DNA of 64,000 nucleotides, from the IMG/VR virus record IMGVR_UViG_2878528002_000001, positions 98,473 to 162,472 of that record. One strand, given 5' to 3'. The translations under genes were made by a program, and so were the position numbers. This stretch comes from a virus. Its lineage: Duplodnaviria; Heunggongvirae; Uroviricota; Caudoviricetes. Under the pieces are notes generated by a model. It had not been told where the DNA came from. It ran no database searches and was given only the letters and a program-made list of their open reading frames with translations. This document shows positions 8,582 to 52,143 of this stretch, in pieces (the first letter of the stretch is position 1; every line of letters begins with the position of its first letter).

Positions 8582-8603
8582 CCTTGAAAAACAAGGCTTT
8601 TTG
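8582..8603 (+). terminator. rho-independent terminator-like hairpin (CCTTG-AAAAA-CAAGG + CTTTTT)
   Basis: A 5-bp stem with an A5 loop followed by a T-run, preceded by a second palindrome GCGTGTACACGC. It overlaps the TTG start of the methyltransferase gene. Confidence 0.4.
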
Positions 8604-9554
8604 AACGATTCTAATGAAAGAAAAAGTTTATCGGTATTATCATTATTTGATGGCATTTCATGCGGTAGAGTCGCACTTGATCGTTGCGGAATTCCAGTAA
8701 AAGATTATTTTGCATATGAGATTGAACCGAATGCAATCAAAATTAGTAGATACAATTATCCTGAAATTCATCAATGTGGTGATGTATTTGCAGAAGATTT
8801 TTCGAAGTATCAAGGTATAAATCTTTTAATCGGAGGTAGTCCTTGTACAAATTTCTCAGGAGCGAAATGTACTAAAACCGCCAAGGCAAAAAAGGAAACA
8901 AAACCAAATGAAGGTGAAGGATGGGATTTATTTAAGCAGTATGTCAGAGCATTACATGAATCTCAACCAAAATATTTCTTATATGAAAACAATTATAGAA
9001 TTTCACTGGAAATCCAGGATGCAATTTCTGATGCTTTAGGTGTAAAACCAGTGTTGATTGATAGTCAACTCGTTTCCGCGCAGAGAAGAAAGAGATTATA
9101 TTGGACAAACATACCTGTATCGGGACTTCCGGAAGATAAAGGAATATTAGTGAAAGATGTTATCTGTGATGATTCATCATTAATTAAGGAATTTGACGAT
9201 AGGATGAGAAATACATTAATCAAATGTGAGAATTACATAAAATATGATCTAGGTGGTAAAGGACATTATTCGCAGCAAGACAGATTATATTATCTGGACA
9301 ACAAGGCTCCTACGGTTCCGAGATGTAGAACTGAAACTAAGTTCAATGTGTGGTTAGGTGGAGAATTATATAAAAAGACATGTCCATTGGAAATTGAAAG
9401 ACTTCAAACTTTACCAGATGATTACACAAAATACGGCAGAGAAGCAGATGGAACAATTGTTGAAATACCGAAGACAAGAAGATTTGAAGCAATTGGTAAC
9501 GGATGGACAGTTGATATAATCTCATGGATTTTAGGAGGAATAAAGAATGCATAA
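8601..9554 (+). CDS. DNA (cytosine-5)-methyltransferase
   Basis: Motif I LSLFDGISCG, motif IV GGSPCTNFS (the PC catalytic Cys), an ENV-like YENNY and motif VIII QRRKRLYW. The start is TTG, because an in-frame TAA lies 36 nt upstream. Confidence 0.8.
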   Translation: MNDSNERKSLSVLSLFDGISCGRVALDRCGIPVKDYFAYEIEPNAIKISRYNYPEIHQCGDVFAEDFSKYQGINLLIGGSPCTNFSGAKCTKTAKAKKETKPNEGEGWDLFKQYVRALHESQPKYFLYENNYRISLEIQDAISDALGVKPVLIDSQLVSAQRRKRLYWTNIPVSGLPEDKGILVKDVICDDSSLIKEFDDRMRNTLIKCENYIKYDLGGKGHYSQQDRLYYLDNKAPTVPRCRTETKFNVWLGGELYKKTCPLEIERLQTLPDDYTKYGREADGTIVEIPKTRRFEAIGNGWTVDIISWILGGIKNA

Positions 9555-14640: not shown

Positions 14641-15414
14641 ATGCAAGTAAATAAAATATATAATCAAGATTGCCTAGAAGGATTAGGATTATTAGACAAT
14701 GAATGTATTGATTTGACAGTAACATCACCGCCGTATGATAACTTGCGATTATATAATGGTTATTATTTTAAGTTTGAAGAAATAGCGAAGGAACTATATA
14801 GAGTGATGAAACCAGGAGGTGTTATTGCATGGATCGTTGGAGATAAAACAAAAAACGGTTCTGAAACAGGAACATCATTTCGTCAAGCTTTATATTTTAA
14901 GGATATAGGTTTTAATTTACATGATACTATGATATACGAGAAAAATAATCCTACACCTCAAAAATCAAACAGATATCAACCATGTTTTGAATATATGTTT
15001 ATATTAAGTAAGGGGAAACCAAAGACATTCAATCCTATAATGATTGAGAAGAAATATATAGAATCTCGACCAAATAAAATGTATAACAAAGACAAATCTG
15101 GGATGCAAATTCAGCATCAATATTCCTCATCATCTAATTTGAAAATCAAAAACAATATATGGAAATATAATGTGGGGCTATATCATAGTACAAATGATAA
15201 AGAAGCATTTAAACATCCTGCTATATTTCCGGAACAGTTGGCTGCTGATCATATTCTATCATGGTCAAATGAAGGTGATATTATTCTTGATCCATTTATG
15301 GGTAGCGGAACCGTTGCAAAAATGGCATTGATTAACAAGAGAAAATTTATAGGATTTGAGATAAGTACTGAATATTGTAAATTAGCAAAAGAAAGGATAT
15401 CTAAGTATGTATAA
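14641..15414 (+). CDS. DNA methyltransferase, beta-class N6-adenine/N4-cytosine (PF01555-like)
   Basis: N-terminus MQVNKIYNQDCLEGL, motif IV TSPPYDNL, and motif I ILDPFMGSGTVAKMA near the C-terminus. Confidence 0.8.
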   Translation: MQVNKIYNQDCLEGLGLLDNECIDLTVTSPPYDNLRLYNGYYFKFEEIAKELYRVMKPGGVIAWIVGDKTKNGSETGTSFRQALYFKDIGFNLHDTMIYEKNNPTPQKSNRYQPCFEYMFILSKGKPKTFNPIMIEKKYIESRPNKMYNKDKSGMQIQHQYSSSSNLKIKNNIWKYNVGLYHSTNDKEAFKHPAIFPEQLAADHILSWSNEGDIILDPFMGSGTVAKMALINKRKFIGFEISTEYCKLAKERISKYV

Positions 15415-16058: not shown

Positions 16059-17423
16059 ATGAATTACGAAGATTTTCTGAAACAAAAAGATTATGTTCTG
16101 GAAAGTAGTGGATTTGATATTGATAAAGATAAATTAAATCCAATGCTATTTGATTTTCAGAAAGATGTAGTGAGATGGGCGTTAGCAAAAGGTAGAGCTT
16201 GTATTTTTGCATCTTGCGGCTTGGGAAAAACGTTAATGCAATTATCATGGGCGCATCAAGTTCATTTACATACGGGTGGTAAAGTATTGATTCTTGCCCC
16301 TTTATCAGTTGCAGATCAGACAAAAAGAGAAGCAGAAAAATTTCATTATGCAGCAAAGGTCTGTGAGAAACAAGAAGATTGCATTGATGGAATTAATATT
16401 ACGAATTATGAAAAATTAGACAAATTTGTTGCAAATGAATTTGTTGGAGTAGTCTTAGACGAGAGTTCAATTATTAAATCCTATACCGGAAAGGTTAGGA
16501 CATCTATTATAGATAATTTCGCAAATGTTCCCTATAAATTAGCATGTACTGCAACGCCAGCTCCAAATGATTATATGGAATTAGGAAACCATTCTGAGTT
16601 TTGTGGAGTAATGACAAGATCCGAAATGCTTTCTATGTTTTTTGTTCATGACGGAGGACAGACCTCCAAGTGGAGATTAAAAGGACATGCAAAAGATGTA
16701 TTTTGGCAGTGGATGGCAAGTTGGTCTGTATTTATTGATAATCCTGCAAATTTAGGATATGACGGCACAGATTATAATCTTCCGCCACTTAATATTCACG
16801 AGATTATTGTAGACGGGGATGAACCAGTAACCGAAACAATGACATTAACAGAAAGAAGAAACGCAAGAAAAGATACCCTTGAATTAAGATGTCAAAAGGC
16901 AGCGGAGTACGTAAATAATTCAGACGAACAGTGGCTCGTTTGGTGTGATCTAAACGCAGAAGGTGAGCGTTTAGGAGAATTAATCAATGAGAGCAAAAAT
17001 GTTCAGGGTAGCGATAAGAATAAATATAAGAGTGAAACAATGCTTTCATTTTCAGATAGAAATCTAAAATGTCTCATCAGCAAACCCCAGCTCGCAGGTT
17101 ATGGCATGAATTGGCAGAATTGTCACAACGTTATTTTTACTGGATTATCAGATAGCTTTGAGCAGTATTATCAGGCTGTAAGAAGATGTTGGCGCTTTGG
17201 TCAGACGGAAGAAGTCAATGTATATATTATTATTTCCGCAAAAGAAGGTTGCGTAAAAGAGAATATCGAAAGAAAGCAATCTGATTTTGTCGCAATGAGA
17301 GATGCCATGATTAGCCTCACAAAAGAGATCACTAAAAAAGAACTTAGATCAACTTGTAGACTTACCACACCTTATGAAGCAAATACAGAAATGAAATTAC
17401 CAAACTGGGAGGAATTTAAATAA
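16059..17423 (+). CDS. SF2 helicase, SNF2-like
   Basis: Motif I ASCGLGKT, motif II VLDESS, motif III CTATPAPN and motif VI QAVRRCWRFGQ (the SNF2-type Q..R..R.GQ). Confidence 0.75.
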   Translation: MNYEDFLKQKDYVLESSGFDIDKDKLNPMLFDFQKDVVRWALAKGRACIFASCGLGKTLMQLSWAHQVHLHTGGKVLILAPLSVADQTKREAEKFHYAAKVCEKQEDCIDGINITNYEKLDKFVANEFVGVVLDESSIIKSYTGKVRTSIIDNFANVPYKLACTATPAPNDYMELGNHSEFCGVMTRSEMLSMFFVHDGGQTSKWRLKGHAKDVFWQWMASWSVFIDNPANLGYDGTDYNLPPLNIHEIIVDGDEPVTETMTLTERRNARKDTLELRCQKAAEYVNNSDEQWLVWCDLNAEGERLGELINESKNVQGSDKNKYKSETMLSFSDRNLKCLISKPQLAGYGMNWQNCHNVIFTGLSDSFEQYYQAVRRCWRFGQTEEVNVYIIISAKEGCVKENIERKQSDFVAMRDAMISLTKEITKKELRSTCRLTTPYEANTEMKLPNWEEFK

Positions 17424-18337
17424 TGGAAAATGTAAATGTAATCGATCAGGCAATCGCAAATAGATATGCTCTTTATCATGGAGACAGTGTGGAAATCACA
17501 AAAGATATTCCAGATAATAGCATTCACTATACAATCTTTTCACCTCCGTTCTCGCAGCTTTATGTTTATTCAAATTCTGATAGAGATATGGGTAACTGTA
17601 AAGGTGACGATGAATTTTATAATCATTTCAAATATCTGGCGAAAGAATTATACAGAATCACAATGCCAGGCAGACTTTTAAGCTTTCATTGTATGGATCT
17701 TCCATTAATGAAATCCAGAGATGGTGTTATTGGACTTAAAGATTTTCCTGCTCTGATGCTTAAAATCTTTCAGGATTGTGGATTTATTTATCATAGTAAA
17801 GTAACAATTTGGAAAAATCCTGTAACAGAAATGCAGCGTACAAAAGCATTAGGTCTTTTACATAAACAGATTAAAAAAGATAGTTCTATGAGTAGACAGG
17901 GACTTCCGGATTATGTAATTACTGTAAGAAAACCTGGTGAAAATCCCGAAAGAGTAGAACATACAAATGAATCATTTCCTGTCGGAGTATGGCAGAATTA
18001 TGCATCTCCTGTATGGATGGATATTCGTCAGAGTGATACATTACAGAGAAAATCTGCGAGAGCGGATCAGGACGAGAAACATATTTGTCCTCTTCAGTTG
18101 GAAGTTATTCAGAGATGTATTGAACTGTGGACAAACCCGAATGATATTGTTTTTGATCCATTTGGAGGAATTGGATCAACTCCGTATGTTGCTGTAAAAA
18201 TGGGTAGACGTGGAATTGCGAGTGAATTAAAAGATAGTTACTTTGAACAGATGAAGAAAAATGTTGAATTGGTAGCTGCCGAAGAACCATCTCTTTTTCC
18301 TGTAGGAGAGAAAAGTATTGAGGATGTAGTCGCCTAA
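17423..18337 (+). CDS. DNA methyltransferase, beta-class amino-MTase
   Basis: Motif IV FSPPFSQL at the N-terminus and motif I FDPFGGIGSTPYVA near the C-terminus. ATGA overlap with the helicase stop. Confidence 0.75.
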   Translation: MENVNVIDQAIANRYALYHGDSVEITKDIPDNSIHYTIFSPPFSQLYVYSNSDRDMGNCKGDDEFYNHFKYLAKELYRITMPGRLLSFHCMDLPLMKSRDGVIGLKDFPALMLKIFQDCGFIYHSKVTIWKNPVTEMQRTKALGLLHKQIKKDSSMSRQGLPDYVITVRKPGENPERVEHTNESFPVGVWQNYASPVWMDIRQSDTLQRKSARADQDEKHICPLQLEVIQRCIELWTNPNDIVFDPFGGIGSTPYVAVKMGRRGIASELKDSYFEQMKKNVELVAAEEPSLFPVGEKSIEDVVA

Positions 18338-19401: not shown

Positions 19402-19720
19402 AACATAGGATTCGCGCATTCTCGTGACTTTAGTCATGAGTAATTCACACAGCCGACAGTTGTAGAAGTTGTTAAGACAGCCGAGAAAGAACCGGTTCCG
19501 GCAGCAGGTAAAGAACCTGAGATTCCAGATTTTATGAAACAAGAGGAATAAGATATAGCAACAATTCATTCAGTATTTGAGTCATTGCTGTATATTTCAT
19601 TTTTACCATTGTTAGGCACAATAATTTATGCTGCCGCAAAGGATAAGATCCGACCATTGTTCGTAGCCTCGGTAGTATCACTTGTTATGAACATTCTTGT
19701 TCAACTTACGAGGTGACAGC
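19402..19720 (+). other. GC-rich segment with coding-like remnants and no valid start (possible captured gene fragment)
   Basis: GC is visibly higher than in the flanks. It translates to ..PTVVEVVKTAEKEPVPAAGKEPEIPDFMKQEE* and to a transmembrane-like ..FESLLYISFLPLLGTIIYAAAKDKIRPLFVASVVSLVMNILVQL.., neither with an initiator codon. Confidence 0.35.
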
Positions 19721-20122
19721 ATGATCGGGACGTTAGAAGAAGTCATGAAGGATATGAAATATGGCGTACTTGATTTCACAAAGGACGGTAAATGCAGTGG
19801 TTGCGGACAATGTTGTAGCAACTACTTGCCAATATCCAGTAAAGAAATTAAAGAAATTAAACGTTACGTAAAGAATCGTCATATCACTGAACAGAAGCAT
19901 AATTATCCTTCAGTTGTGGCATTTGATCTTACTTGCCCGTTCCTGGATGATTCCAAAGAAAAAGAAAAATGTCTCATTTATCCAGTGAGATCTGAGATAT
20001 GCAGAGATTTTGTCTGCAACAATCCGAACGAGGCAATCAAAAACAAGAAACTTATGTATAAGAAGTACGCAGCAGTAGATATGCGAGAAATATTTTTTGG
20101 AGGCAACGGGAATGAACAATAA
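19721..20122 (+). CDS. YkgJ-family Fe-S/zinc CxxCxxCC protein
   Basis: CSGCGQCCSNYLP motif. ATG at 19721 preceded by AGGTGA. The annotated TTG at 19697 is unlikely to be the real start. Confidence 0.4.
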   Translation: MIGTLEEVMKDMKYGVLDFTKDGKCSGCGQCCSNYLPISSKEIKEIKRYVKNRHITEQKHNYPSVVAFDLTCPFLDDSKEKEKCLIYPVRSEICRDFVCNNPNEAIKNKKLMYKKYAAVDMREIFFGGNGNEQ

Positions 20123-20720
20123 AGAAATTTTAAAGAAAGTGAAGGAGCTTGTTGAACTTCTGGAAAAGCAGGAAGAAGCTGACAAAGTTGTGTTGTCAAC
20201 ACTGAAACGAGGAGATGTGTTTCAGACCACTGGAAAGCGTAAATACAAGGTTCTGGAACAGTATGGAGATACAACGAAAATTATTTCGCTTGATCTGGTG
20301 AAAGAAAATGTAGAGTTTGGTGATACCTCAGATTACAAAACATCAAACGTAAAGAAACTGTGTGACACTGAAATTCTGAAAGACTTCGAAGAAGAATTCG
20401 GGGCAGAAAATGTCGAAACACACACAGCAGATATTATCACTGCGGATGGACAGAAATTTGGGACTGTTGATTATAAAATCCGTCCAATTACATTTGATGA
20501 AGCACGAGAATACACAGATATTACACCGAACAATGATCTGAACGACTGGTATTGGACATTATCGCCATGGTCAACGGAAGAACGTGGATGGAAAAAAAGT
20601 ATTACCGTTGTTTCCCCTTCGGGCTTTGTCAGCAGCCACGGCTATTACTTCAGCGTAAGTGGTGTTCGCCCAGTTTGTATCTTAAAATCTAATATCTTTG
20701 TATCTAAGGTGGAGGAATGA
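20097..20720 (+). CDS. hypothetical protein, tandem paralog A (C-terminal ..LSPWST..VSPSGFV..GVRPVC.. domain)
   Basis: Shares a C-terminal domain of about 65 aa with 20717..21322. The two copies share identical DNA 23-mers (TTGTTTCCCCTTCGGGCTTTGTC). Confidence 0.5.
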   Translation: MEATGMNNKEILKKVKELVELLEKQEEADKVVLSTLKRGDVFQTTGKRKYKVLEQYGDTTKIISLDLVKENVEFGDTSDYKTSNVKKLCDTEILKDFEEEFGAENVETHTADIITADGQKFGTVDYKIRPITFDEAREYTDITPNNDLNDWYWTLSPWSTEERGWKKSITVVSPSGFVSSHGYYFSVSGVRPVCILKSNIFVSKVEE

Positions 20721-21322
20721 TTATGAAGAAAAATCTGAAATATTTTGAGGATGAATTATCCAGATTAAGTAAAGAGTTCGTAGAATTCAAGAAAAAGCAC
20801 ATCGGAAAGCCGGAAATCGGAAAAGCTATTGAACTTGCTGGTATGGAATGGCTGATTCTGGATAAGACAGAAAAAGGATATTTTGCCATTTTGAATGGAT
20901 TTGATGGAAAAGAAAGAACATTTGATTCAGCTTCAAATAACTGGATTTCAAGTAAACTGAGAAATGAGTTAAACACTCGTTTTCTTAAAAAAATTACGGA
21001 CGAGCTTGGAGAAGATGCAGTTATTGAGTTTGATCGAGATTTACTTTCTATGGACGGTCAGACAGAATATGCACATTGTAAAGATAAGATTTCGATTTTG
21101 ACGGTGGATGAATACCGAAAATACAGAAAAATCCTTCCAAATATGGATAAATGGTGGTGGCTGCTTACTCCATGGAGTACACCAGCAAATGATTACAGTA
21201 CAACAATTGCTATTGTTTCCCCTTCGGGCTTTGTCTGCAGCGTCAATTGCTTCTACGTTTATGGTGTTCGCCCAGTTTGCATCTTTTCTTCTTCAATCTT
21301 TGAATCAGGAAATGATGATTGA
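20717..21322 (+). CDS. hypothetical protein, tandem paralog B
   Basis: Same C-terminal domain as paralog A. ATGA overlap. Confidence 0.5.
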   Translation: MIMKKNLKYFEDELSRLSKEFVEFKKKHIGKPEIGKAIELAGMEWLILDKTEKGYFAILNGFDGKERTFDSASNNWISSKLRNELNTRFLKKITDELGEDAVIEFDRDLLSMDGQTEYAHCKDKISILTVDEYRKYRKILPNMDKWWWLLTPWSTPANDYSTTIAIVSPSGFVCSVNCFYVYGVRPVCIFSSSIFESGNDD

Positions 21323-22264: not shown

Positions 22265-22876
22265 ATGAAACCGATATTTCAGGAGGAAAATATGAAAAGA
22301 CAGATTAGAAAAGGTGTTTATGAAACAAATTCTTCAAGTACACATGCGATTTGTATTACAAAAGAAAATGTAGAAAATAATGTAATTCCAAATCATATTG
22401 ATTTTTGCATCGGAGAATATGGTTGGGAATTTGAAGAATATAAGGATATCTATAATAAAGCTTCTTATTTAATTACCGCAATTCTATCATTTGAAAAAGA
22501 ATATGCAGATGAAAAATTAGAACAGTTAAAATCAATCCTGAATTCTTATGGAATTACTTACACTCTTCCAGATGTAAAAGTTCAGGCAACTGAATGGGAT
22601 GGAAAAACTTGTTATCACTATGATATAGACGGATACATTGATCATAGTGGTGAACTAAAACCTTTACTTGATGATTTGTTATCAGATTCGGATAAGTTAT
22701 TTAGATTTTTATTTGGAGAATCTCTTCTTATTACTGGAAACGATAATGGTTATGACTATAATGATAGAATGCGGATTGCTGAAGAAACAGAAGATGAGAG
22801 TTGGGGTAGTTATACAATATATGGTGATTTGAAACCTGAATTTGACAAATATGATATTTATGAAAAGAGGAATTAA
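22265..22876 (+). CDS. 'MKRQIRRGVFETNSSSxH' family protein, copy 1
   Basis: N-terminus MKRQIRKGVYETNSSSTHAICI. First of three tandem paralogs. Confidence 0.55.
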   Translation: MKPIFQEENMKRQIRKGVYETNSSSTHAICITKENVENNVIPNHIDFCIGEYGWEFEEYKDIYNKASYLITAILSFEKEYADEKLEQLKSILNSYGITYTLPDVKVQATEWDGKTCYHYDIDGYIDHSGELKPLLDDLLSDSDKLFRFLFGESLLITGNDNGYDYNDRMRIAEETEDESWGSYTIYGDLKPEFDKYDIYEKRN

Positions 22877-22878
22877 AC

Positions 22879-23592
22879 ATGAAGAGGCAAATTCGCAGAG
22901 GAGTTTTTGAATCAAATTCAAGTTCCATGCATGCATTATGTGTAATGAAAAAGAGTGAGCAATATACACCAGAAGAAATTTTAGACAGTTTATATTTGTA
23001 TGATGATTACGAGACTCAAGAAAAGGACTGTATTTGGGAGCCGCGAGAATCAAACATGGAATTTGGAAGAAGCCCATTTAAAGCAATTGGAACATTTGCA
23101 GATAAATGGTTATATGCTTGCGCATCAATGGTTGAAGAATATAACGACAATACTTATAAAGAACTCGAAAGAATTGCATTTAAATATATTCCTGGATTAA
23201 AGAAAATAGTGATGCCGTTTACATATGGATGCAATCTAAATAAAGATAATCCTAAAAATGATGGTGATATTCTTTGTAAAGAATGTGGAATGACAGAAGA
23301 TGAATTAATCGAATATCTCATGCAAAAAGAAGAAAAATGGGGTATAGAAATAAATTATTGGAAAGACAGAGATGGAGACTGGGGCTATCATGAACCATAT
23401 ACAGGACAGGTTGATGAAGATATTTTAAGTAGATTCCTAGAAACGGAGAATATTACATTAGAGGAATTTTTGATTAACAAGAAATATGTTGTGATTCAGG
23501 ACGGAGACGAATGTTGCGAATTCACAAAAATTAAGAAAACTGGATTAATTAATTTTGATGCAATTGATCATGAATATCCGGATAGAGAATAG
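22879..23592 (+). CDS. 'MKRQIRRGVFETNSSSxH' family protein, copy 2
   Basis: N-terminus MKRQIRRGVFESNSSSMHALCV. Confidence 0.55.
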   Translation: MKRQIRRGVFESNSSSMHALCVMKKSEQYTPEEILDSLYLYDDYETQEKDCIWEPRESNMEFGRSPFKAIGTFADKWLYACASMVEEYNDNTYKELERIAFKYIPGLKKIVMPFTYGCNLNKDNPKNDGDILCKECGMTEDELIEYLMQKEEKWGIEINYWKDRDGDWGYHEPYTGQVDEDILSRFLETENITLEEFLINKKYVVIQDGDECCEFTKIKKTGLINFDAIDHEYPDRE

Positions 23593-23605
23593 GAGAATAA
23601 AAAAT

Positions 23606-23899
23606 ATGAAGAGACAAATTAGACGTGGTGTATTTGAAACTAATTCATCAAGTGTGCATAGTTTAACAATGTGTACACAATCAGATTATGATAAATGGAA
23701 AAATGGAGAACTTATTTATGATTATTGGGAAGATAAATTAATTCCACTTGATGATACAGAATATCATGATGATGACAGATATTACACATATGATCGTTTT
23801 AATGAGTATGGCACACTTGATTATGAAACTTTTGAAGATACATTTACGACAGAAAATGGTGATACAGTAGTTGCATTTGGATATTACGGTCACGATTGA
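23606..23899 (+). CDS. 'MKRQIRRGVFETNSSSxH' family protein, copy 3 (short)
   Basis: N-terminus MKRQIRRGVFETNSSSVHSLTM. ATG at 23606 with an AGGAGAATAAAAAATATG RBS. Confidence 0.5.
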   Translation: MKRQIRRGVFETNSSSVHSLTMCTQSDYDKWKNGELIYDYWEDKLIPLDDTEYHDDDRYYTYDRFNEYGTLDYETFEDTFTTENGDTVVAFGYYGHD

Positions 23900-23914
23900 T
23901 TAGGAGGATTAAGA

Positions 23915-24811
23915 ATGGGATTATTGGGAAGATATAAAAACGGTAACTTTGTGACAACTATTTTGAGTGATGGAACAAAAATTAGAGAAACAGAAGATGA
24001 TGAATTTATTCCTTTATTTGCTGAAAATATGGATATTAAAATTTGCAACTATTGTGATATGGGATGTAAATTTTGTCATGAAGGTAGCACAATAAATGGT
24101 AAATTTGGTAATATTTTAAATGAAAAATTTATTGATAGTTTACATCCATATCAAGAAGTTGCGATTGGAGGTGGAGATGCAACCAGTCATCCTGATTTAA
24201 CCCCGTTCTTACAAAAACTAAAAGAGAAAAAAGTGATTGCAAATATGACTGTTAATCAGATCCATTTTGAAAAGAAACAGGAATTAATCAAAAAGTTAGT
24301 CAACGAGAAATTAATCTATGGTCTTGGCGTTTCGCTAGTAAATCCCACAAAACATTTTATTGAACTTATAAAACAATATCCAAATGCAGTTATTCATGTG
24401 ATTAATGGAGTATTAAAACCATCTGATATAAAAGCATTAGAGAATAATAATTTAAAGATGTTAATTCTTGGGTATAAACATTTGCGTAGAGGTAATGAGT
24501 ATTTTGAAGAAGAACAGAATGATATTGAGACTAAGCAGCAATGGTTATATGAAAATCTTGAAGATATTATTCAGAAATTTCAAGTTGTAAGTTTCGATAA
24601 TCTTGCTATTGAGCAGTTGGATGTAAAAAGATTATTAACTCAGGAAGAATGGGATGAGTTTTATATGGGAGATGACGGATCAACAACTTACTATGTTGAC
24701 ATGGTAGAGCGAAAATTTGCAAGAAGTTCAACAGCTCATATGAATAAAAGATATGATTTACTTGATTCTGTCGATGATATGTTCAATGTGATTAGAATGG
24801 AGAATGATTAA
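23915..24811 (+). CDS. radical SAM domain protein (activase/QueE-like small subfamily)
   Basis: C-x3-C-x2-C in ICNYCDMGCKFCHEG and a Gly-rich SAM motif AIGGGDATSHPDL. RBS AGGAGGATTAAGAATG. Confidence 0.65.
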   Translation: MGLLGRYKNGNFVTTILSDGTKIRETEDDEFIPLFAENMDIKICNYCDMGCKFCHEGSTINGKFGNILNEKFIDSLHPYQEVAIGGGDATSHPDLTPFLQKLKEKKVIANMTVNQIHFEKKQELIKKLVNEKLIYGLGVSLVNPTKHFIELIKQYPNAVIHVINGVLKPSDIKALENNNLKMLILGYKHLRRGNEYFEEEQNDIETKQQWLYENLEDIIQKFQVVSFDNLAIEQLDVKRLLTQEEWDEFYMGDDGSTTYYVDMVERKFARSSTAHMNKRYDLLDSVDDMFNVIRMEND

Positions 24812-28009: not shown

Positions 28010-29119
28010 ATGAAAGACATTAAGATTGTGATTGGAAGTAATTTTGGGGATGAGGGAAAAGGAATGATGACAGATTTCTTTTCCCAGAAATCAAACAGCA
28101 TTGTAGTGTGTTCAAACGGCGGAGCACAACGCGGACATACCGTAGTAACTCCAGATGGAATCAGACATGTCTTTCATCATTTTGGTTCCGGAGCATTTAA
28201 TGGAGCAAGCACGTATTTACCAGAAGATTTTATCTTAAATCCAGTTGTTTTCCGCCAGGAATTACACGAGCTTTACAGAGTAAAGCATCTTCCCGCAACA
28301 TATATTCATAATGATTGTATGGTCACAACTCCATGGGATATGATGGCAAATCAGATTGTTGAAGAAAGTCGTGGTAAGAATAAACACGGAAGTTGTGGCA
28401 TGGGAATTTTTGAAACAATTACACGCTACAAGGCGGGAGTAGTTGATTTAGATTCTTCTATTCGCGATTATTATTTGGAACGGTTTTCGGAAGAAAATAT
28501 ACAGTTATCTGATTCATGGAAAACTCTTATTATGAATGATGATATATTCGATCATTTCTTAGATGATTTGGATTTTATGAACGAATATTGTTCTGTAATT
28601 TCTGATGACTATTTTCTAAATCTATTCGATAACATTGTATTCGAGGCAGGACAGGGTTTACTACTTGATCAGAACAATCTTGAATATTTTCCAAATTTAA
28701 CTCCTTCAAATACAGGCATTAAAAATCCTAAGAAAATTATTGAACGTGTTGAGTGGAATGATGAGATCGAGATAGAAACCTGTTATGTTACAAGAACATA
28801 TATGACGAGACACGGTGTGGGCAAGTTTCCTACTGAATGTAATAAATCGGTAATTAATGGAAAAATGTTTGATAAAACAAATGTACCTAATATTCATCAG
28901 AATTCATTAAGATACGGAACATTAGATTACGAAGAATTATGTAGTAGATGTTCAAACGATGTTAAAGATTTTGGGGATAAAAAATCTATTGCTATCACAC
29001 ATTGCAATGAATTTCCATATGATTCAAATAAAATCTCTGAAATATTTAAAGGATGGGATATTTACTATTCTAATGGAGAAATTCGGGACAGTATCAATAG
29101 AAAGTGTGATAGTTTATGA
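28010..29119 (+). CDS. adenylosuccinate synthetase (PurA) homolog; candidate PurZ-type N6-succino-2-amino-2'-deoxyadenylate synthase
   Basis: Aligns along its length with PurA: IGSNFGDEGKGMMTD (P-loop with Asp13), NGGAQRGHTVV (His41 loop), FEAGQGLLLD (FEGAQG), VGKFPTE. The guanine-specificity (T/S)KLD motif position reads ITHCNE. Confidence 0.7.
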   Translation: MKDIKIVIGSNFGDEGKGMMTDFFSQKSNSIVVCSNGGAQRGHTVVTPDGIRHVFHHFGSGAFNGASTYLPEDFILNPVVFRQELHELYRVKHLPATYIHNDCMVTTPWDMMANQIVEESRGKNKHGSCGMGIFETITRYKAGVVDLDSSIRDYYLERFSEENIQLSDSWKTLIMNDDIFDHFLDDLDFMNEYCSVISDDYFLNLFDNIVFEAGQGLLLDQNNLEYFPNLTPSNTGIKNPKKIIERVEWNDEIEIETCYVTRTYMTRHGVGKFPTECNKSVINGKMFDKTNVPNIHQNSLRYGTLDYEELCSRCSNDVKDFGDKKSIAITHCNEFPYDSNKISEIFKGWDIYYSNGEIRDSINRKCDSL

Positions 29120-50903: not shown

Positions 50904-52143
50904 AAAAAAGAGAATTATATATAAGAAGGTGGTGATTATGAATGTTGGTTGCATATAAATATAGATTATATCCAAACAAAGAACAGCAAATATATTTTGC
51001 AAAATGTTTTGGATGTGTACGATTCATTTATAATCGTATGCTTTCAGATAAAATTGAACATTATAAAGAAACAAAACAGAGACTTAACAATACACCAGCT
51101 CAATATAAGAAAGAATTTCCTTGGTTGAAAGAAGTTGATTCACTTGCACTAGCAAACGCACAGATGAATTTACAGACAGCTTATAATAATTTTTTCAAAA
51201 GACCAGAAGTAGGATTTCCTAAATTCAAGAGCAAGAAAAGTCATAAATATTCTTATACTACTAATAATCAAGGTGGAAACATTTATGTTTCTGACAGATA
51301 CATTAAATTACCTAAGATTGGGTTGATAAGAATAAAGAAGCATAGAGATTTTGAAGGGTTAATAAAATCGGTGGCAGTCTCTCAGAAACCATCTGGAAAA
51401 TATTATGTTTCAGTTTTGGTTGAATGTGATGAAATTGAAAAACTTCCGAAATCGGAATCTGAAATTGGAATAGATTTAGGTCTAAAAGACTTTGCTATTC
51501 TGTCGAATGAAGAAAAAATAGCTAATCCGAAATACTTATCCAAATCTGAACTCAAACTTAGGAAATTGCAAAAAGATTTATCCAGATGTCAAAAAGGTAG
51601 CAAGAATAGAAATAAGTGCAGAATAAAAGTTGCGAAGCAACATGAGAAAATTGTAAATCAAAGAAAAGATTTTCTAAACAACCTATCCAAAAGACTTATT
51701 TGTGAAAACCAAACAATATGTCTTGAGGACTTGAAAATCAAGGAAATGATGAGTAATAAACAAATATCAAAATCGGTTGCAGATGTATCATGGAGTGAAT
51801 TTGTGAGACAGCTCGAATATAAAGCACAATGGTATGAACGAGAAATTATAGAAATAAGCACATGGTTTCCGTCAAGTCAGACGTGTTCTTGTTGCGGGTA
51901 TATCAATAAAAGGATCAAAGACACAAATATTCGAGAATGGATATGTCCTAATTGCAATGTACACCACGATAGAGATATCAACGCAGCAATAAATATCCTC
52001 AATGAAGGATTGAGAATAAGAACCGCAGGAACTGTGGAGATAGCCTAAGTAAACTTGTCTCGGTAGAGATATTGACTAGGAAGCTCAGACCTCTAAGCAA
52101 AGCGTAAGGTCGTGAGTAGTTCACACAATTAGAACGAGAAGAT
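50904..52143 (+). mobile_element. IS200/IS605-family tnpB-only element (IS1341-like); ends approximate
   Basis: A single TnpB ORF with about 95 nt of structured noncoding sequence between its stop and the next gene. No tnpA is present and the exact left and right ends were not determined. Confidence 0.45.
50942..52048 (+). CDS. tnpB: TnpB (IS605 OrfB-family RNA-guided nuclease/transposase accessory protein)
   Basis: N-terminus MLVAYKYRLYPNKEQ, central RuvC-like region, C-terminal zinc finger CSCCGYINKR..WICPNCNVHHDRDINAAINI. Confidence 0.85.
   Translation: MLVAYKYRLYPNKEQQIYFAKCFGCVRFIYNRMLSDKIEHYKETKQRLNNTPAQYKKEFPWLKEVDSLALANAQMNLQTAYNNFFKRPEVGFPKFKSKKSHKYSYTTNNQGGNIYVSDRYIKLPKIGLIRIKKHRDFEGLIKSVAVSQKPSGKYYVSVLVECDEIEKLPKSESEIGIDLGLKDFAILSNEEKIANPKYLSKSELKLRKLQKDLSRCQKGSKNRNKCRIKVAKQHEKIVNQRKDFLNNLSKRLICENQTICLEDLKIKEMMSNKQISKSVADVSWSEFVRQLEYKAQWYEREIIEISTWFPSSQTCSCCGYINKRIKDTNIREWICPNCNVHHDRDINAAINILNEGLRIRTAGTVEIA

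Follow-up and report, generated by a model that had tools for sequence, protein, structure and literature searches.

The tagged-protein locus

The window considered here is a stretch of 64,000 nucleotides of a tailed phage (IMG/VR record IMGVR_UViG_2878528002_000001, positions 98,473 to 162,472), and our subject is a block of four genes within it, in which three proteins that share a conserved N-terminal peptide, P1, P2 and P3, are followed by a radical S-adenosylmethionine (SAM) enzyme, termed rSAM below. We refer to the shared peptide as the tag and to the proteins that carry it as tagged proteins, which fall into the types A, B and C and a number of smaller groups. The window is AT-rich, with a G+C content of about 32%, and its + strand holds nearly every open reading frame (ORF) of at least 100 aa, including the four genes of the block, which lie head to tail as follows.

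22292..22876, + strand: P1, tagged protein of type A (the commonest class), 194 aa
22292..22345, + strand: N-terminal tag of P1, MKRQIRKGVYETNSSSTH
22879..23592, + strand: P2, tagged protein of type C, 237 aa, with the Shine–Dalgarno sequence AAGAGGA upstream
22879..22932, + strand: N-terminal tag of P2, MKRQIRRGVFESNSSSMH
23606..23899, + strand: P3, tagged protein of type B, 97 aa, isoelectric point (pI) 4.3, with the Shine–Dalgarno sequence TAGGAGA upstream
23606..23659, + strand: N-terminal tag of P3, MKRQIRRGVFETNSSSVH
23915..24811, + strand: rSAM, radical SAM enzyme, 298 aa, with the cluster motif C48-x3-C52-x2-C55 and the Shine–Dalgarno sequence AGGAGG upstream

The successive gaps in the block are 2, 13, 15 and 0 nt, the first three being those between P1 and P2, P2 and P3, and P3 and rSAM. 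A Shine–Dalgarno sequence precedes every one of the four genes and no terminator-like site was found across the block from P1 to rSAM. The tight packing and terminator-free spacing suggest that the four genes are co-transcribed.

Alternative starts are available for P1, at 22265 (203 aa) and at 22292 (194 aa). The latter is almost certainly the one used: the sequence AGGAGG lies 7 nt 5' of the ATG at 22292, the counterparts of P1 on sister contigs were called independently at 191–194 aa, and from this start the spacing of the motif from the methionine equals that in P2 and P3. The initial annotation had therefore given P1 too great a length, at 203 aa; its positions for the ORFs were otherwise accurate, and its lengths for P2 and P3 agree with ours. 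The two small ORFs that it placed after rSAM are also present, with 88 and 81 aa. They are lineage-specific and lie outside the module, since the tagged proteins and rSAM are the sole families that recur across 81 diverse loci.

The N-terminal tag

The N-termini of P1, P2 and P3 align as MKRQIR(K/R)GV(Y/F)E(T/S)NSSSxH, with M, K, R, Q, I, R, G, V, E, N, S, S, S and H the same in all three, and the shared motif that had first drawn attention to the locus is thus borne out. The DNA beneath it has diverged, as had been noted: over the first 72 nt of the three genes the mean column identity is 81%, and many of the codon differences within the tag are synonymous (serine as TCT, TCA, AGT or TCC; arginine as AGA, CGC or CGT). 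Conservation therefore acts on the protein. The original proposal of purifying selection, as opposed to a recent duplication, gains from these synonymous differences and from the age of the subfamilies, which are orthologous in unrelated phages.

More generally the tag has a consensus of about 18 residues, M-K-x-Q-I-R-x-x-V-F-E-T-N-S-S-S-x-H. Among 189 tagged proteins from diverse loci, Arg6, Glu11, Asn13, Ser14, Ser15 and His18 are conserved in 100% and Phe10, Thr12 and Ser16 in 99%, values to be read with the fact that the pattern used to select these proteins demanded the E, T, N, S and H positions and left only the arginine and phenylalanine free. The glycine of R-x-G-V-F is found in only 48% of tags. 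The position of the motif is also constrained. The glutamate lies 9–10 residues beyond the initial methionine in 179 of 192 tagged proteins, and the 507 ORFs that begin with the motif over all fetched loci have it at residue 10–11 counted from the methionine. Nearly all tagged proteins carry the tag at the extreme N-terminus. A different arrangement is seen in P0213 (228 aa, from the representative search), in which a Lar-like zinc-ribbon domain (PF14354, 3e-4) precedes the tag, so that the tag is internal. As judged from the sequences, the tag is the sole obligatory element common to the partners, and the C-terminal parts vary.

Linkage of the tag and the radical SAM enzyme

The association was approached from both sides. 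A search of 185,579 species genomes with the peptide FETNSSSxH[AS] alone gave 127 relatives, from which 78 distinct loci were kept; a few of these stem from isolates and the rest from metagenome-assembled genomes (MAGs) that span many phyla, Methanobrevibacter and Patescibacteria among them. An orthologue of rSAM is present at 64 of the 78 loci, on the same strand and nearly always adjacent (E values of 1e-65 to 1e-148), and several of the 14 loci that lack it are on contigs that are short or truncated. The fetched flanks of L100, L118 (which has five tagged genes), L125, L135, L137, L143 and L152 are among those without rSAM, and some of these loci are near contig ends. L125 belongs to a Gracilibacteria MAG, the ORFs of which may be broken by table-11 translation; Gracilibacteria read UGA as a sense codon.

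In the reverse direction, with the window enzyme as the query, every one of 80 viral loci (identity of at least 70%) has one to three tagged genes. With a cyanophage enzyme as the query we obtained a more diverse sample of 80 viral loci (38–98% identity, on contigs of up to 446 kb), and 79 of them carry at least one same-strand tagged gene, mostly less than 60 nt away; at the single exception the contig begins inside the rSAM gene. A single tagged gene is present at 38 of these 80 loci. The synteny of tag and rSAM is thus near-obligate in both directions. The functional link to the radical SAM neighbour that was first suggested holds accordingly: the family was placed in no housekeeping fold, and rSAM is syntenic in relatives.

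A survey of copy number in relatives, as had been advised, gave 1 to 10 tagged genes per locus. The largest expansion is seen at L144 and L146, Prevotella and Fibrobacter MAG contigs on which ten tagged paralogues are found with rSAM several kilobases upstream, and six tagged genes are present at L124, L126 and L127, the last of which was binned with Methanobrevibacter. When every ORF within 4 kb was clustered over the 81 diverse loci, the recurring families were the tagged proteins (205 genes at 81 loci) and rSAM (67 genes at 67 loci, single-copy at each). A third conserved partner gene was considered and rejected, the next recurring clusters being antisense shadow ORFs of the rSAM gene. Fusions of the tag to rSAM were likewise dismissed, as the long rSAM ORFs have other causes: at L132 an intein is inserted, at L128 the stop-to-stop listing of ORFs adds a long in-frame stretch upstream, and at L103 the ORF overlaps a tagged one that is read in a different frame. 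The architectures observed are type A with rSAM, types A and B with rSAM, type B with rSAM, and other tagged proteins with rSAM.

Among annotated phages, a tblastn search found the family confined to Microcystis phages and the Lak megaphages. The order in the Microcystis phage Ma-LMM01 is gp130 (tagged, 165 aa), gp129 (112 aa, untagged) and gp128, named 'Fe-S oxidoreductase'. Here gp129 (L007, 6544-6882) occupies the slot in which other phages carry a type B gene, and it is possible that it is a degenerate type B protein. In Lak-A1 the rSAM gene is followed by five tandem tagged genes, encoding proteins of 165, 223, 118, 186 and 101 aa, the last of which resembles P3. Taken together, tag and rSAM appear to constitute a self-contained two-component phage module that is widespread in large phages.

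The radical SAM enzyme

Against PF04055 the window enzyme scores 29.0 bits (E 1.4e-6), with a gathering cut-off of 29.5, and precomputed Pfam annotation gives PF04055 for the identical protein P0294. The enzyme matches phrog_16999, 'Fe-S oxidoreductase', at 1.6e-44, and an identical NCBI entry is named 'radical SAM protein [Blautia obeum]'. The window enzyme, gp128 of Ma-LMM01 and the Lak-A1 orthologue are 40–49% identical over their full length, and the family comprises at least 7939 clusters at 90% identity.

The three cluster cysteines (CX3CX2C) are invariant among orthologues of 34–49% identity, and two orthologue alignments contain no invariant cysteine beyond this triad. The enzyme therefore has neither an auxiliary cluster nor a SPASM domain and is not a SPASM/twitch maturase; no SPASM match was obtained in Pfam or NCBIfam, with a radical SAM/SPASM model scoring 12.3 bits against a cut-off of 400. 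Pfam also gave no RRE (RiPP recognition element, where RiPP denotes a ribosomally synthesized and post-translationally modified peptide) or PqqD match. All matches to curated families are far below cut-off, the best being the protein-activating NrdG2 (TIGR02495, 25 bits against a cut-off of 131.15) and MoaA. In build the enzyme is closer to the activases and small-molecule radical SAM enzymes. Its N-terminal extension is only about 35 aa long, with a conserved YxNGNxxxTIxxDGTKIRxT ahead of the core.

On a Paludibacter-MAG contig (L132, 3593-5701) the orthologue is split by an intein that carries a LAGLIDADG endonuclease (PF14528, 2e-10; Intein_splicing, 3.5e-8). The insertion point, with ...ELA on one side and CGGGNP on the other, is at the conserved GGGN motif, probably the site of SAM binding. 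In the window, a CxxCxxCC-domain protein (19697-20122, + strand; PF03692, 3e-10, a putative Zn/Fe-chelating domain) is encoded 2 kb upstream of the module. It is conserved in the close relatives L001-L006 and not across the diverse loci; that it serves rSAM as a redox partner is speculative.

Classes of tagged protein and their folds

Beyond the tag, the C-terminal parts form at least three classes without detectable mutual similarity, plus more than 20 small groups. The 507 tagged ORFs over all fetched loci comprise 188 of type A, 181 of type B and 138 others. The partners range in size from roughly 90 to 320 aa and are acidic throughout, with a median pI of 4.5–5.75 in every subfamily tested.

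Type A, to which P1 belongs, accounts for 72 genes at 61 of the 81 diverse loci. Its conserved features are the tag, GEFGWE, YLxTAI (YLYTAI), GYIDH, TGNDN and a C-terminal KGN (KRN in P1), and the near-invariant polar residues beyond the tag are Trp45, Asp117, His118, those of TGNDN, Lys192 and Asn194. P1 has 692 close homologues, and its profile search reached 2642 representatives of 50%-identity clusters at E values up to 1e-3. A cluster name look-up returned no name for any family member, and PHROGs holds P1 as phrog_28997 with function unassigned. Sequence searches of P1, P2 and P3 against Pfam, NCBIfam, PADLOC and the PDB gave no match, nor did a search of PDB sequences with the P1 profile.

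An AlphaFold2 model of P1 based on 150 diverse sequences, which superseded an earlier one (40 close sequences, pLDDT 82), has a pLDDT (predicted local distance difference test score) of 92.4 and a predicted template-modelling score of 0.87, and the five models agree. The pLDDT is 49 for residues 1–10, 77 for residues 11–20 and above 90 for the remainder, and the low confidence of the first ten residues fits a free N-terminal arm. Compared with solved structures the model gave no fold match, the alkaline-phosphatase/sulfatase fold included, and the sole match in BFVD is to one uncharacterized family member. As predicted, then, type A has a confidently modelled fold with no solved relative. The initial annotation was able to place the motif in no fold, and our searches and model likewise lead to no known one.

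Type C, represented by P2, occurs at 11 of the 81 diverse loci. Relative to type A, P2 has VDE in place of IDH and QDGDE in place of TGNDN, and lacks the KGN end, with the tag kept. When the tag was trimmed, hhalign aligned type C to type A over 44 columns with an E value of 1e-4 and a probability of 58%; by this measure P2 appears to be a divergent, weakly detectable relative of P1.

Type B, with 54 genes at 46 of the 81 diverse loci and at least 6386 clusters at 90% identity, is defined by the tag, HSLTMC..Y.KW.NGEL, a variable acidic insert and a C-terminal TTPxGxxVVAFGYYGHD, which in P3 takes the form GDxVVAFGYYGHD. At the diverse loci the type B gene is usually the last tagged gene and directly precedes rSAM. 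The short third copy had been read as retaining only the N-terminal domain; P3 is no truncated remnant and represents a subfamily that is separate and widespread, with a C-terminal motif of its own. Tag-free profile–profile comparison gave no homology between types B and A (E 0.21). By the same comparison type C and three other groups weakly match type A (E 2e-5 to 2e-4), and some other groups have no homology to it. Among 23 representatives of the remaining classes the mean column identity is 14%, only Met1, Arg6, Phe10, Glu11, Thr12, Asn13, Ser14–16 and His18 are invariant, and no Pfam domain was found.

A proposed maturation step and its alternatives

From the linkage and the conservation of the tag we infer that rSAM recognizes and modifies the tag, a reading to which we assign a probability of about one half; the residue hit and the role of the matured proteins are likewise our inference. 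The first ten residues of the tag (QIRxGVF), being flexible, would dock on rSAM, plausibly with residues 3–10 on the conserved N-terminal stretch of about 35 residues (Y, NGN, DGT), our candidate for the docking surface. Docking would bring the E-T-N-S-S-S-x-H loop to the [4Fe-4S]/SAM site, where a 5'-deoxyadenosyl radical would abstract a hydrogen and a post-translational modification would be installed. The variable C-terminal domains, those of types A, B and C and the more than 20 other groups, would be functional cargo matured by one enzyme. We regard action of rSAM on the tag as the simplest account because one invariant enzyme is paired with one invariant N-terminal peptide at a fixed position, and also because the tag joins domains without detectable mutual similarity, the arm is modelled with low confidence in the monomer and there is no third component. 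We put forward more tentatively, as a possibility, that the tag is the site of a novel protein modification or protein-derived cofactor installed by rSAM, for example from the serine triplet, which arms phage-specific effectors.

Several points weigh against recognition and modification of the tag by rSAM. Radical SAM enzymes that modify peptides or proteins usually bear an RRE, SPASM/twitch auxiliary clusters or both, and rSAM has neither. A two-electron oxidation of serine of the kind carried out by the anaerobic sulfatase-maturating enzymes (anSMEs) would be hard to rationalize without an auxiliary cluster, and a glycyl-radical mechanism seems unlikely because no glycine of the tag is invariant. 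About seven loci with adequate flanks have tagged genes and no rSAM within several kilobases. Finally, the polar residues of type A resemble an enzyme active site, and the tag could belong to that site and not be a substrate.

The linkage and the autonomy of the tag would also fit if the tagged proteins were interchangeable partner or adaptor subunits, with the tag completing or gating the active site of rSAM and the variable domain recruiting different targets (such as host proteins, nucleic acids or metabolites) for rSAM to act on. The presence of one rSAM and many tagged proteins per locus in the clustered set is in keeping with this, and a structural or catalytic insert could account for nine residues being invariant. 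We nevertheless consider it unlikely: we are aware of no precedent for a radical SAM enzyme completed in trans by a peptide arm, the 38 of 80 loci with a single tagged gene imply that diversification is not essential, and type B is tiny, with much of its length taken up by a variable acidic insert. The enzyme-like residues raise another explanation, in which type A is itself an enzyme whose ETNSSSxH loop forms an active site with Asp117/His118, TGNDN and KGN, acting jointly with rSAM in a small-molecule or nucleic-acid pathway such as the modification of nucleotides or DNA; the other tagged proteins would be degenerate or regulatory paralogues. The near-invariant polar residues run all along type A, and the AlphaFold2 model has the motif loop, at moderate confidence, where strand 1 begins. 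In this window the module is set in a region of DNA metabolism, and in Ma-LMM01 primase and resolvase genes adjoin it; radical SAM enzymes without auxiliary clusters, such as QueE and viperin, offer a parallel for rSAM. Yet the tag is the most conserved part and persists on domains that have no detectable homology to type A; P2 keeps it though other type A residues are lost; loci exist with rSAM and only type B or other tagged proteins; no further pathway gene co-occurs among the ORFs within 4 kb; and the predicted fold matches no known enzyme. Such a shared pathway is, in our judgement, unlikely too, a little more so than the adaptor role.

Least probable by far is a role of the tag in sorting or processing, like that of the capsid-targeting sequence of the T4 internal proteins, perhaps with a cut after the glutamate of V-F-E and with rSAM as a neighbour that has an unrelated job. 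The module does place a conserved N-terminal peptide on polymorphic, tandem proteins of large phages, and V-F-E resembles the T4 prohead-protease site, (L/I)-x-E, but near-obligate adjacency to rSAM in unrelated lineages would be left unexplained, the invariance runs seven residues beyond the putative cleavage site, the module lies among replication and early-type genes and not among head genes, and no protease co-occurs within 4 kb.

Some further ideas were discarded. A glycyl-radical motif in R-x-G-V-F fails on the glycine, which is not conserved. An HNH motif and the block pattern of the SGNH hydrolases are both contradicted by the order of the motifs and lack a matching fold. An Ntn-hydrolase-like propeptide, or asparagine-mediated self-cleavage at N|S, is improbable, as it has no supporting fold match and would leave rSAM unexplained. 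The radical SAM enzyme of thymidine hypermodification in phages M6 and SP10 depends on 5-HMUDK kinase and aGPT-PPlase genes (PMC5889632). These kinase and aGPT-PPlase families are absent from Pfam scans of the window and none recurs near the module, and a pathway of that type was set aside. The carrier, scaffold or anti-defence roles first suggested for the tagged proteins are conjectural, and PADLOC returned nothing relevant to the module.

Genomic context

The window covers the part of a large metagenomic gut phage, probably a phage of Blautia, that is devoted to replication and DNA modification; sister contigs are about 160–200 kb long, and megablast comparison of the region with the INPHARED phages found no match. 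The neighbours of the module include N6/N4 and C5 DNA methyltransferases, an SNF2-type helicase, a Sequestin-domain protein, a PurZ-like adenylosuccinate synthetase, a primase-helicase and Pol III alpha, and in Ma-LMM01 the module adjoins the primase and resolvase genes. Since gene neighbours vary among phages, the module behaves as an autonomous cassette.

Other features of the window may be mentioned in their own right. One C5 and two N6/N4 DNA methyltransferases and the SNF2-type helicase are encoded at 8601-9554, 14641-15414, 16059-17423 and 17423-18337, and the Sequestin-domain protein joins this cluster in sister contigs; the cluster, which lies near the module, indicates that the phage invests heavily in modifying DNA and in counter-restriction. 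Just upstream of the module, at 20097-20720 and 20717-21322 (+ strand), another local duplication has given tandem paralogues with a C-terminal DUF6273 domain (phrog_9958), which have weak similarity to Hoc-like head decoration proteins. A 369-aa adenylosuccinate-synthetase-like protein (28010-29119, + strand) matches PF00709 at 1.4e-33 over profile positions 1-282 of 416 and is kept in sister phages. It could be of the PurZ type, which would imply DNA containing 2-aminoadenine (Z). Within the phage replication region lies a TnpB/IS605 OrfB-type protein (50942-52048, + strand; OrfB_IS605, 3.6e-29; Cas12f1-like TNB, 1.4e-25).

Significance

We found no Pfam entry, name or paper for the tagged family or for its pairing with rSAM, and a literature search on the motif and on phage radical SAM and anti-defence themes gave nothing relevant. 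The chemistry has a real chance of being new. The components are also abundant, with at least 7939 rSAM clusters, at least 6386 type B clusters and 2642 type A representatives at 50% identity, and the large phages that bear the module inhabit gut, rumen and fresh water and include the Lak megaphages and the model cyanophage Ma-LMM01.

On the more tentative reading put forward above, in which the modification of the tag is a novel one, the enzyme would represent a radical SAM clade able to do without an RRE and without auxiliary clusters, the tagged proteins would be a hyper-variable effector family that includes a new fold, and large phages would be using a protein-scale, RiPP-like maturation in host takeover or counter-defence. 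The tag provides a defined candidate substrate of 18 residues for an orphan clade devoid of the usual domains for peptide recognition and auxiliary clusters, so that a peptide, SAM and mass spectrometry would allow a direct test of the chemistry. The shared dependence of a diversifying family, with 1 to 10 members per genome, on one enzyme suggests a common activation step, and type A, with its confidently predicted fold and no solved relative, is of structural interest.

Comparison with known systems

The anSMEs and their sulfatases offer a close functional parallel, in that one radical SAM enzyme serves several paralogous proteins which share a short invariant motif near the N-terminus and are otherwise divergent. 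The sulfatase motif contains the serine (or cysteine) that is to be modified, and formylglycine is formed. The motif there is (C/S)xPxR, however, and here ETNSSSxH; anSMEs carry SPASM auxiliary clusters, whereas rSAM has no extra conserved cysteine; and P1 is unlike the alkaline-phosphatase/sulfatase fold and belongs to a module that is phage-borne. The glycyl-radical enzymes and their activases, as in PflA, NrdG and the small protein GrcA/YfiD, resemble the module in another respect: the gene of a small radical SAM enzyme without auxiliary clusters adjoins that of its protein substrate, in which a short invariant loop is the site of action, and NrdG2 is the best curated match to rSAM, far below cut-off. 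The tag, in contrast, lacks an invariant glycine (that of the RVxG[FWY]-type loop) and is N-terminal rather than C-terminal, and the tagged proteins have no glycyl-radical-enzyme fold.

The radical SAM RiPP pathways, such as those of SCIFF/ranthipeptides and of proteusins with NHLP leaders, share with the module tandem genes with a conserved N-terminus and a variable C-terminus, a single adjoining radical SAM enzyme and a copy number that differs among genomes. They differ in that the partners here are acidic proteins of about 90–320 aa, one of them modelled as folded, and not short peptides; the target is probably the conserved part itself; there are no SPASM-type cysteines, and no RRE, protease or exporter was identified for the module; and the module is found in phages and phage-like MAG contigs. 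The internal proteins of T4-type phages, with their capsid-targeting sequence, are also polymorphic tandem small proteins of large phages that share only an N-terminal peptide, but the peptide of the module is linked to rSAM and not to a prohead protease, and its genes lie outside the structural module. By analogy, therefore, the module would in function most resemble a radical SAM maturase with its protein substrates, and in gene layout the RiPP clusters with multiple precursor copies.

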